From Octopus vulgaris (lineage: Eukaryota): 64,000 bases of DNA. Position 1 is the stretch's first letter, and each line of letters starts with the position of its first letter. This document shows positions 29,160 through 43,621 of this stretch, one piece after another. The translations under genes and the position numbers were made by a program. The DNA is taken from positions 12,958,001-13,022,000 of the forward strand of contig OX597814.1 of assembly GCA_951406725.2 (NCBI GenBank), read 5' to 3'. The notes under the pieces were generated by a model that was given only the letters and a program-made list of their open reading frames with translations, had not been told where the DNA came from and ran no database searches.

Positions 29160-30175
29160 TAATGGTCAAGTGACCTACATGACACATGTTTTTATTTTGC
29201 TGTTGGATCTCTTAAGGAGGATTTCGAGGAATGGAAGTTGTAAATTAAATATTTAAGTCAAGTCCTTATAGAAGTGCTTGAAATTCTTTAGGTTCCTCTA
29301 TACGTTCATACTAAAGAATGAAGCAGTCCTCTAGATGTCTTTTCCAGTTTTTTTCTATGTAAAGGGAGAATGAGTTTCCGTATATTCGTAGTAGCTTACG
29401 ATAAAAAGTGATTTATAGGTACCCCATCACTAGGTTAGCAAAGGGGGTGGGGGGCAATCTCGTAATCATTGTGTCCCACGATTTCTGTTGATAAATGTTG
29501 TCTCTGAATACGAAGAAATTATTCTCCAAGATGAATTGTATTCCTTCTATAAAAATTCTTTTTTGATGCAGTGTAGGAGAAAATTATTGGAGAATTTTCT
29601 AGCCAGATTTGTATTGTCTCTATTCCTAGGTTGTGGGGGATATTAGAATACATGTTGACTACATCGAAGGATACTAGTAGGGTTTTTTTTTGTTTTTGTT
29701 TTAGGGAGGTGGCTGAGAATATCTCGGTCGCCCCTAATGTAGCTTTCGATATGCTTGACGAATGGTTTTTAGAAGGGTATGTAAAAAGTCGCTGAGGTTG
29801 TGAGTTTCGCATGCAGGGACTGCTATTATAGCTCTTAATTTTAGGTCAATAGGTGGAGGTACTTTGACTATTATGTCTGTGGCTCCCCTGCATGAGTTAC
29901 TTATTTGTTTCACTTTTGCATATCTTAGGAATACCGTAAAAGTAACTGGATTTAGTTTTGAAGTTTGTCGTGTATATATAGTCGTATTTTTTGTCGACGA
30001 GCCCGTCTCTGTATAAGTTTATCAGATATTTTTAGGCTTTTCATTATTTTCTTCTGACTGTAGTGTTGGGCGTCTTCGTAGTATGTTGTATCTTTTCATA
30101 TGGATAGCACTACAATCAGATAGTTCACCGTGTCCTTTAAAGCTACTGCACTCCATTTATCAGCATCTTTGTTAT
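29160..30175 (-). mobile_element. Second decayed Penelope-like RT copy
   Basis: Co-linear with 5150-6200; LLVSFDVVNMYSNIPHNLGIETIQIWLEN. Confidence 0.9.
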
Positions 30176-30220
30176 TCCAGTTCTATATTTAAGAGATGAG
30201 GAATTATGTACAATATTTAC

Positions 30221-30331
<111 letters not shown>

Positions 30332-30332
30332 A

Positions 30333-30841
30333 AACTGATTGGAAGTGTTATCATGTACATTGTTTTGTCTTGGTATAAAAGATGGGCTACAGCAAATATT
30401 CTGCTCAATACCACAGATTTGCTTGTCAGTTGATTGACCTTAACCAGTTGAGCATGTCCCTTAGTGGCTGACGATATGTGCATCTCTGATCACGAGCAGA
30501 AGTAGTGGGGGAGCATCATAGCCATGTGTTGAGAAGGATTCTTTGGTGTTTGAATAATTCACCTCTGGAAACATGGGTGTTTCGTTCAACGTCCTTAAAC
30601 AACCCTTTTTCAGGGACCTTTTGAGCGGAATGGGCTACTCGATCTGAAGAAAATTCTAACTGGGCTCCACCTGCAAGGTCATGTGCTGTTTATCTTGATA
30701 TGAGATCACCATGTCGCGCACATATGGTTGTGATGCATGTGCCTAGTGTATCCTTATCAGACGGGTAGTCATGATGGGTATACTGGGCTTCGTATATTTT
30801 ATCCCAGTGTCACTTTGATGGCATGCTCTGCTCGCTCACTC
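30333..30841 (+). mobile_element. Non-coding retroelement 3' segment inserted in (AAT)n
   Basis: About 20 mismatches in ~510 nt versus 43011-43566 by eye; same 3' end; both copies flanked by (AAT)n. Confidence 0.85.
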
Positions 30842-30869
30842 AATAATAATAATAATAATAATAAGTATA

Positions 30870-31048
30870 ATAATAATAATAACATCGAAACATACCTTAG
30901 GAATGTGAACCCAGGTACGAAAATTCCCCAAGACACCTGATGAAGACTTGGCGGGTATTTCAGCCGAAACGTTGTGTTAACAGCAAACAAGATGAGGACA
31001 AATATCCGTCAAGTGTAAATAATATAAATAATGTAAATAATGCTCTTT
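30870..31048 (+). mobile_element. Hammerhead-bearing SINE-like element, head missing
   Basis: Co-linear with the reverse complement of 40797-40950. Confidence 0.8.
30932..30978 (+). ncRNA. Minimal type I hammerhead ribozyme motif
   Basis: GACAC-CTGATGA-A-GACTTG...CAGCC-GAAAC-GTT-GTGTT; stem I GACAC/GTGTT, palindromic ACGT stem III, imperfect stem II. Confidence 0.72.
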
Positions 31049-31299
31049 GTTACTATTTTATCATCCATTAATCTGTTTAGCTCAACCATTCGTTCTTGCA
31101 GAGGTTTGGCTCGTAGTGTGTGTGTGTGTGTGTGTGCATGCATGAGTAGAAACAGGTATATGTGTGAAGAAAGTTCATATTTGAATTAAACATTTCTCTG
31201 TACAACAGTATAGAATTTATGTGAAATACTTAGAAATCAGTGGGAAATCCTGAAAATGATGATTTAACTATCTCAAGCGTAAAATATGCTTTGAAATAT

Positions 31300-40796: not shown

Positions 40797-41040
40797 ATTA
40801 TTTACATTTGACAGATATGTGTCCTCATCTTGTTTGTTGTTAACACAACATTTCGGCTAATGTACCCACCAGTCTTCATCAGATCTTGGGGAAATTTCGA
40901 ACCTGAGTTCTCATTCCTAAGCTATTTTTCGATGTTGTTATTGTTGTTATTATTATTACTATTATTCAGGTCACAGCGAGGAATCGAACTCGGAATCTTT
41001 GGTTTAGTAGCCCGCGCTCTTAACCACTAAGCCCTATGTC
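40797..41040 (-). mobile_element. tRNA-headed SINE carrying a hammerhead motif
   Basis: A box GGCTTAGTGG, B box GAGTTCGATTCC, (AAT/AAC)n linker, then CTGATGA-A-GACTG..TAGCC-GAAAT-GTT-GTGTT. Confidence 0.82.
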
Positions 41041-41599
41041 TACAGGCTTATAGCGTAGAGTTTAAGTGGATAAATGCTCAAAACAGTAAAGCTATTAAAA
41101 TTACATAAAAGAATCTACACTGCATGCATCAATATCAATGTTAATTGTTTTCTAAATTAGTCTTTATTTTGTCGTTTTTATTCGCTACAATTATAACCAT
41201 TACTTACTGATGTCATCGAGTTTCCATTGGAAATGTTTCATTCCTTTTAATCACGGGTGTCCTTTCTGTAATATTTTTGGATAAATATTTTTAAGAATAT
41301 ATTTTCCCAGAAAGTCACCAGCAAAAGTTTAAATGCCAGGTTAACGGAAATTCTATTTGTCTACCCTCCGACCATCTACAGAAATAACATTAGCAACAGT
41401 AGTAAACAAACAAGTCTTCTTGGAAGTACCTAAGATTCTAAAAGCTGTGAAACCGACAACAGTATCAGCAATGCTGCACTGTTTCAGCTTGTGTGGAAGA
41501 CAGTGATTTAGAAGTTGCCAACGCTCTAAATATTGCAAGACATTTTGTGCTTAATGATCGGTTGGAAATACAAGCCTCTAGTGAGGATGCTTCAACTAT

Positions 41600-43011: not shown

Positions 43012-43566
43012 TGCCCTGATGCAGTACCAGGCAGTGGCTCTCATGGCTTCTGATCTTAACTGATTGGAAGTGTTATCATGTACATTGTTTTGTCTTGGTA
43101 TAAAAGATGGGCTACAGCAAATATTCTGCTCAATACCACAGATTTGCTTGTCAGTTGTTTGACCTTAACCAGTTGAGCATGTCCCTTAGTGGCTGACGAT
43201 ATGTGCATCTCTGATCACGAGCAGAAGTAGTGGGGGAGCATCATAGCCATGTGTTGAGAGGGATTCTTTGGGGTTTGAATAATTCACCTCTGGAAACATG
43301 GGTGGTTCTTTCAACATCCTTAAACAACCCTTATTCAGGGACCGTTTGAGCGGGATGGGCTACTCAACCTGAAGAAAATTCTAACTGGGCCCCACCTGCA
43401 AGGTCATGTGCTGTTTATCTTGATATGAGATCACCATGTCGCGCACATATGATTGTGATGCATGTGCCTGGTGTACCTTTATCAGACGGGTAGTCATGAT
43501 GGGTATACTGGGCTTCGTATATTTTACCCCAGTGTCACTTTGATGGCATGAACTGCTCTCTCACTC
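43011..43566 (+). mobile_element. Second copy of the (AAT)n-inserted retroelement 3' segment
   Basis: Near-identical to 30333-30841, ~47 nt longer at the 5' end. Confidence 0.85.
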
Positions 43567-43621
43567 AATAATAATAATAAAAATAATAATAATAATGTAT
43601 TATATATATATGTATAAATAT

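Follow-up and report, generated by a model that had tools for sequence, protein, structure and literature searches.

We find that the repeat on the minus strand at 41041–40797 of the window (the whole 64,000-nt stretch of Octopus vulgaris DNA that was analysed) is, almost certainly, a decayed solo pLTR of an autonomous Penelope/Poseidon element. The sequence evidence leads us to regard it as likely that this dead copy arose when the element's own RT copied the front of an RNA that would have begun, under Pol III, at the tRNA-like head with which the pLTR opens. The earlier note on this DNA had described a SINE that captured a Penelope end; that description has the direction wrong, in that the head sits in the pLTR of the autonomous element itself.

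The head, linker and hammerhead core that had been named in the locus are indeed present, all on the minus strand. The 75-nt tRNA-like head occupies 41041–40967 and forms the 5' end of the retrotransposon unit; its A-box lies at 41034–41024 and its B-box at 40991–40981. There follow an (AAT/AAC)n linker of variable length that belongs to the 5' UTR (40966–40937), and the pLTR body (40936–40797), which comprises 22 nt of UTR plus the first ORF codons, stops near the 'short' end (see below) and has no tail. The ORF start codon is the ATG at 40914, the frame of which is broken in this copy by a 2-nt deletion. The string GGTTCGAAAT at 40903–40894 had been read as a second B-box; the B-box consensus ends in an invariant C that is missing here, and the string spells the codons Q-V-R-N, so we dropped it as a promoter box, which it probably is not. 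Both this string and the linker, previously assigned to a SINE, are parts of the retrotransposon: coding sequence and 5' UTR, respectively. Further downstream is a decayed minimal type I hammerhead (40887–40842) with a broken stem I: its core CTGATGA is at 40882–40876, its stem II, with one mismatch, at 40874–40855, and its GAAA-TG-TT segment, GAAATGTT, at 40854–40847, with the predicted cut site between 40847 and 40846. Unlike the family form, this hammerhead does not conform to the minimal type I plan. The suspicion that the copy is inactive was well placed: it carries GAAAT, a CpG decay found in 28 of 206 arms, together with the broken stem I, and is probably dead. Overall, the copy is 91% identical to the family majority over 41038–40797. 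It contains zero T4 runs, as had been claimed, and the nearest is ~17 nt downstream. At 41044–41068, on the plus strand, the opening ~25 nt of the head recur in inverted orientation (19/25 identical); an alignment comparison favours the head start over the ORF end as the source, and such a short inverted 5' arm is typical of Penelope-like insertions.

Scored against a profile of 18 tRNA genes of the same genome, the head reaches 26.7 bits (best of 430 shuffles, 3.7), and it is the sole match of at least 12 bits across the 64,000 nt. Its best pairwise match, among the 8 isotype/anticodon classes sampled, is tRNA-Arg, with 49–51 identities over about 75 nt. ARAGORN and Rfam applied to the window, and Rfam applied to a well-kept copy, called neither a tRNA nor a hammerhead; at a relaxed score ARAGORN gave inconsistent calls with many chance matches, which we left out of the evidence. 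In the family majority the A and B boxes fit the consensus, the acceptor stem is lost and the cloverleaf fold is gone. As a control, the same profile was run over 38 related pLTR regions, namely the related loci that have downstream sequence, and over 3 Neptune-like regions; only one of them (L307, described at the end) is weakly tRNA-like.

The element behind the repeat emerged from a family majority built from 46 pieces of 42 loci. Its unit of 2664 nt (about 2.66 kb) consists of head, (AAT)n, ATG, one 835-codon ORF, a 29-nt spacer and then the next head. The family pLTR is composed of the 75-nt head, (AAT)n and a 176-nt body; the ORF begins at body position 23, the body includes the first 154 nt of the ORF, and the hammerhead overlaps the first ORF codons. 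Of 30 loci selected by similarity to the ORF, 28 have a head directly downstream of it; one of the 30 is L054, the source of the ORF query, where a decayed RT/GIY-YIG frame ends just upstream of the head, and 8 on C31 seem to be duplicates of a single insertion. The eight C31 copies (L159–L166, G000:C31) are near-identical and have a common 5' breakpoint and flank, which points to a duplicated contig segment. At the other end, 13 of 30 loci that were selected with the N-terminal part of the ORF show the body continuing directly into it, and three of 20 long loci examined (L203, L207 and L216) are pLTR-ORF-pLTR direct repeats. DNA contigs of 4 runs, with 4 organism labels, also carry the family, and some of these bridge ORF and head. 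The reading frame through the hammerhead is kept in a relative (TPD-G...PKRCVNN, 44% over 151 aa). Because the body runs into the ORF and this relative preserves the frame across the hammerhead, we conclude that the pLTR body is coding sequence, as it is in Anolis PAc. The hammerhead module had rightly been taken for a Penelope pLTR end. All copies examined are broken, and their non-CpG divergence is 4–5%.

The ORF contains the motifs DKG, MGSPLS, RYVDD and FLD; its match to RVT_1 (E 1e-4) is below the cut-off. It has 599 homologues at E<=1e-20, and those listed carry PF00078 and/or PF26215. The RT piece is 39% identical to an 836-aa Anolis carolinensis protein, and the C-terminus matches the endonuclease region of that protein (26% identity, E 8e-19), while a Pfam search for GIY-YIG on three broken pieces spanning the C-terminal region gave no match. 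An RT tree of 25 pieces, rooted at the midpoint and with Naiad and Nematis rows absent, sets the element and the Anolis proteins apart from two Neptune-like families (100/100); the RT of the element groups with Poseidon-like proteins. The architecture is that of Anolis Poseidon PAc (PMC11167929) and D. virilis Penelope (PMC2377424), which are described as having the same single RT plus GIY-YIG ORF of about 835 aa. Three other families, one Neptune-like with a 781-aa frame and two more that came from a GIY-YIG search, were tried as partners and rejected: they have no pLTR similarity. The Neptune-like family (L121–L132, e.g., G000:C6:133342500-133350500) is young, with copies 98–99% identical; an intact 781-aa RT/GIY-YIG frame stands behind a second 479-aa frame, and there are a 500-bp pLTR, a 30-nt tail and only a degenerate hammerhead-like motif.

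Six insertions of the tRNA-headed family fall within 40 fixed-position 10-kb stretches, which corresponds to about 42,000 insertions (14,000–77,000) in a genome of 2.8 Gb; a similarity search of the genome returned 4093 candidates, 40 of which were scored. Head and hammerhead, the linkage of which had been proposed from the query copy, are linked family-wide. The copies stop at two sites ~26 nt apart within the ORF start, at body position about 150 (short) or about 176 (long). Head-to-head pairs combine one long and one short end in 30 of 38 cases, and in 26 of 35 among 60 loci taken in order along C1. A shared flank of at least 8 nt surrounds 20 of the 38 pairs (null 2.7%) and 14 of the 35 ordered-locus pairs (null 1.9%, shuffled flanks); the figure for unpaired headed copies with such a flank duplication is 5 of 28 (null 4%). 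We did not find a 3' A-rich or simple-repeat tail with a TSD round a single copy: the TSDs flank the inverted unit. PLEs are characterised by an inverted 5' copy together with a tail on one side only (PMC8557442); in the Anolis PLE, two internal RT start sites delimit the tail (PMC11167929). The earlier idea of mobilisation by Penelope RT fits the insertion anatomy (inverted pairs, one-sided tail, short TSDs), which matches that of Penelope RT/EN. The Penelope/Poseidon PLEs that have been described share with the octopus family a pLTR over the ORF start, a hammerhead near the start codon, two end sites, a one-sided tail, an inverted 5' copy and AT-rich targets; what distinguishes the octopus pLTR from these descriptions is that it opens with a tRNA-like A/B-box head, and that copies start there. 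At 2 of 5 body sites the paired arms have source variants in common, and they share 45 non-CpG changes (22 by shuffle): the arms of one pair derive from the same source haplotype, which fits fold-back and two RNAs of one master alike.

The sister copy near 30870, which had been reported to keep stem I and GAAACGTT, does so, and it has neither a tRNA head nor an undamaged stem II (one mismatch and one extra base). It is an inverted pair, without a head, that spans 30178–31032: the minus-strand arm at 30178–30222 is body 132–176 with the 'long', tailed end (98% identical), and the plus-strand arm at 30881–31032 is body 1–151 with the 'short' end. A candidate 9-bp TSD stands at 30166–30174 on the left and 31044–31052 on the right. 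Inside the (AAT)n run of this sister insertion is a 530-bp high-copy repeat that is foreign to the element (30331–30860). A second copy is present in the window at about 43058–43585; the repeat is flanked by (AAT)n, is 91–97% identical in many loci (including L038, L053, L158 and L274) and is several times placed within the (AAT)n linker of the tRNA-headed family. Scanning it with the tRNA profile gave no match.

The hammerhead of the family has a stem I of 5 bp, a stem II of 5–6 bp, the palindrome AACGTT, a CUGANGA plus GAAA core and a UH site. An exact 28-mer from it occurs 2999 times in the genome (reversed control, 0), and both parts of the core are intact in 100 of 206 arms; in related metagenome loci we observed 22 hammerhead motifs of the same plan with differing stems. 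In predicted energy the hammerhead fold exceeds the MFE fold by 1.4 kcal/mol, and the MFE folds of the two hammerheads in the window are not better than those of shuffles. The predicted intermolecular (dimer) helix is worth -5.7 kcal/mol in the family form versus -1.4 in the query copy. The family hammerhead would cleave only as a dimer or with the help of protein, and it appears to set neither end of the copies. In vitro, mutation of the hammerhead of Anolis PAc was without effect on insertion (PMC11167929). The minimal hammerheads described for PLE pLTRs (PMC4209133) have the same short helix I, longer helix II and extra base after position 9, and are also palindromic at 15.2-16.2; they likewise occur genome-wide as solo motifs in truncated PLEs, and as dual motifs on opposite strands 100–700 bp apart. 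The octopus ribozyme itself is no different from those in that report, in the available text of which a tRNA head goes unmentioned.

Is the short form a SINE in its own right, that is, an independent non-autonomous Pol III SINE with a captured Penelope end, its own masters and mobilisation by Penelope RT? There are observations that would suit such a lineage: head copies exceed ORF-end copies about 4 to 7 fold, and solo copies retain both boxes of the head as well as the two end sites. Moreover, a tandem hammerhead array of 239-bp units was found at one locus (L035), and a dozen or so pLTR-pLTR copies, in which the join falls near body 280–340, are without most of the ORF; array and joined copies may be small non-autonomous offshoots. 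As in a tRNA-derived SINE, the head carries both boxes. What such a SINE should also have, however, is non-coding sequence of its own that differs from its partner's 5' end; instead, the repeat is the partner's own pLTR plus ORF start, the autonomous element itself carries the head, and the body is coding sequence. The age and variants of the copies also argue against separation: among 244 arms (33 ORF-linked and 211 other), a sample that would miss small subfamilies, every variant that reaches 8% occurs in solo and ORF-linked arms alike, and non-CpG divergence is similar in ORF-linked and other arms (4.8% vs 4.3%). Recurrent indels are mostly multiples of 3, among them a frame-keeping 9-nt insertion in 44 cases, and there are 36 scattered 1-nt insertions too. 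Because solo and ORF-linked copies share their variants and their age, no separate SINE lineage is visible, and we judge an independent SINE to be very improbable. The tandem array was encountered in one of 60 similarity-picked loci and in zero of 60 ordered loci, whereas a retrozyme family would consist of tandem units of 170–400 nt, each bearing a hammerhead; the family does not qualify as one. This locus (L035 839–1888, G000:C22) is itself retrozyme-like: four whole head-plus-body units and one partial unit join the short end to position -7 and share private changes. As to the pLTR-pLTR copies, in ten loci (L387, L394, L396–L398, L400, L409, L410, L412 and L413) the body runs to about 280–300 and then jumps to a second pLTR; this recurrent junction zone may be an RNA end, a limit of RT binding or a small deleted subfamily.

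Having identified the repeat as the pLTR of an autonomous element, we can ask where its RNA begins. Among 47 head segments in the 60 ordered loci, 28 begin at -8 to +4 relative to tRNA position +1, 13 within the head, 1 at -17 and 5 in the ORF. Put another way, 28 of the 34 arms that reach the head start stop at -8 to +4, where the loss rate inside the head would predict 2.3. These clustered starts have their larger mode at -8 to -6 (9/28) and a second mode at +1 (7/28). Arms that run on into the ORF (30 loci) behave likewise: five of the six that reach the head start begin at -8 to +4 (counted by eye). Of these five, only 2 continue for over 800 nt of ORF sequence, and in one, L408, head and body are separated by 1.3 kb. 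Counts of exact 21-mers placed 60 nt apart fall from 3681 in the head to 831 upstream of it, and among upstream loose ends in the contigs of the 4 DNA runs, -7 and about +1 lead in each. Because 5' ends pile up at the head, the template RNA, ORF-bearing RNA included, most likely began there. A Pol III start directed by the boxes is expected upstream of +1. From the position of the starts and the state of the boxes, we consider that Pol III probably initiates transcription at the head.

The pile-up might instead reflect ordinary 5' truncation, the RT stalling or folding back at a GCCC-AC-GGGC hairpin of the head start. Some inverted junctions, the query copy's among them, fall exactly on that hairpin (six were counted in long-plus-short pairs, with polarity 3 GT, 2 AC and 1 CT, too few to read), and strong 5' truncation is usual for such elements (PMC8557442). 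Nevertheless, the clustered starts are mostly not mirror junctions at the local hairpin, since most adjoin a unique flank or a differently cut arm; both arms are full in only 2 of 43 long-plus-short pairs, template jumps depart from -6, -7 and -11 also, and a folded head should halt the RT at its 3' side. We therefore rate this explanation as the least probable of those considered here, a long shot even beside an independent SINE.

A further observation, bearing on how far Pol III could read, concerns T4 runs. There are 0 in the 2664-nt family majority, against 4.7 expected from composition, 2.9 from synonymous shuffling (P 0.03), 5.8 from a codon model (P 0.001) and 2.6 from a dinucleotide null (P 0.08); G4 is likewise 0, with 3.2 expected. 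The one T4 in our initial family majority proved to be an insertion private to the backbone copy (1/21) and was discarded. Real copies contain 0.4 T4 per kb. The control was a set of 59 ORF stretches left from 79 related loci once 20 short or duplicate ones had been dropped; here the median is 3.1 per kb, and T4 is in overall excess (279 observed vs 208 expected). Neptune-like ORFs have T4 counts of 9, 2, 8 and 1. Three of 23 related ORF stretches of at least 1.5 kb are T4-free, and two of these belong to one head-less family. This related Poseidon-like family, with T-rich repeats, no tRNA head and almost no ORF T4 (L323, L333, L334 and L385), cautions against leaning on terminators. We regard the absence of T4 as supportive of, not decisive for, Pol III read-through of the unit; that the whole 2.66-kb unit would be one Pol III transcript is correspondingly a tentative proposal, to which we give rather less than an even chance. 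In the single raw RNA run that was analysed, which has another organism label and of which about 6% was read, the library was unsuited, both strands were equal and there were no peaks of starts or ends; among the holders listed as carrying the family there is no RNA run.

Several points count against a Pol III origin. The head has no cloverleaf fold and gets no Rfam call; the +1 starts are explicable by cleavage of a tRNA-like fold or by fold-back at the hairpin; an uncapped RNA offers no obvious path to protein; the T4 signal is modest (dinucleotide P 0.08, G4 also 0); and the D. virilis Penelope promoter is described as internal and LINE-like, with a downstream promoter element (PMC2377424). 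These considerations feed the principal alternative for the same pLTR, in which the 5' end at the head comes from an internal Pol II promoter or an RNase-P-like cut and the boxes are a tRNA relic. That alternative has the known Penelope promoter as its precedent (PMC2377424); the +1 mode equals the 5' end of a mature tRNA, a capped RNA would solve translation, and T4 loss is seen in head-less families too. On the other hand, the larger mode of starts, at -8 to -6, is where a box-directed start would fall, and the retention of boxes with loss of the acceptor stem is the opposite of what processing needs. Furthermore, UTR, ORF and spacer are all T4-free, and the head-less T4-free relative has T-rich repeats. 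Bearing in mind both sets of arguments, we hold the Pol II or RNase-P-like origin to be unlikely, albeit the strongest of the competitors, and prefer initiation by Pol III at the head.

We hypothesize that the element is propagated as follows. Pol III, directed by the A and B boxes, would initiate at about -6/-7 and, there being no T4 in the unit, could read through the ORF into the next pLTR. The RT/EN would then nick AT-rich DNA and begin reverse transcription internally, at the short or the long site; internal RT starts at such sites have been demonstrated in vitro with the Anolis element (PMC11167929). Depending on whether the RT begins in the first or the second pLTR, the product would be a SINE-like copy of 280 nt or a copy that bears the ORF, respectively. 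We propose that there is a mass of solo copies because internal RT starts copy only the first pLTR. Protein might be made by cap-independent use of the A-rich leader, or from a separate Pol II transcript. Taken to its full extent, this would be an autonomous element with a swapped-in tRNA Pol III cassette, purged terminators and cap-free translation that sheds SINE-like solo repeats, a composite picture that we put forward as possible, with the balance tilted slightly against it.

What is already known for this class of element includes minimal hammerheads, insertions with inverted arms and a tail, and solo pLTRs. The closest precedent for the combination with Pol III is Schistosoma SM-alpha / Sj-alpha (PMC6765202), short repeats in which a type I hammerhead likewise follows a Pol III promoter; those are non-coding tandem repeats that the ribozyme cuts from multimers, whereas the octopus repeat is a coding start, mostly dispersed or inverted, with ends that are not at the ribozyme cut. 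Non-LTR retrozymes (bioRxiv 10.64898/2026.07.22.740005; PMC7229834) are non-autonomous PLE derivatives and likewise short pLTR-related hammerhead units, presumed to be mobilised by PLE proteins; tRNA and Pol III are absent from the main text of the preprint (10.64898/2026.07.22.740005), and the tandem form is rare in the octopus family. Our literature search, confined to the main text of papers, found no tRNA-headed pLTR or Pol III-driven PLE, though a supplementary family library may already name the element; a recent octopus repeat annotation leaves hammerheads unmentioned in its main text (PMC13282606).

Octopus SINEs of tRNA-Arg origin, OK, OR1 and OR2, were reportedly described by Ohshima and Okada in 1994. 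Their copy number is of similar order to that of the tRNA-headed pLTR family, and a tRNA-Arg-like head is said to be common to both. Compared by description only, the short form may therefore already have been named as a SINE (OK or OR1). OR2 is a CORE SINE (PMC4758252) and, because the body of our family is PLE coding sequence, does not fit it.

The tens of thousands of loci that look like tRNA SINEs should accordingly be annotated as Penelope solo repeats, and they illustrate how internal RT starts convert a 5' UTR into many SINE-like copies. Pol III is usually associated with short non-coding RNAs, and SINEs are taken to acquire their ends from LINEs. Pol III transcription of a protein-coding transposon would thus be unusual, and a tRNA-type head at the start of a Penelope transcript blurs the boundary between SINE and autonomous element. 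If the proposed origin is true, a Penelope element has a ready path to becoming a SINE that Penelope mobilises. The element also lends itself to a clean test: is the RNA of a long, ORF-bearing retrotransposon made by Pol III and then translated?

The weakly tRNA-like control region, L307, is from a marine metagenome contig and belongs to a distant Poseidon-like element with a unit of 2791 bp that is repeated identically and contains two T4 and no T5. At 2840–2990, between the stop codon and the hammerhead, it has a weak A/B-box stretch and a short AAT run; the box scores 6.5 bits, exceeding all 430 shuffles, and Rfam gives no call. This region is a possible independent case of the tRNA-headed design and, with its weak box and two T4 per unit, hints that the design may have originated repeatedly.
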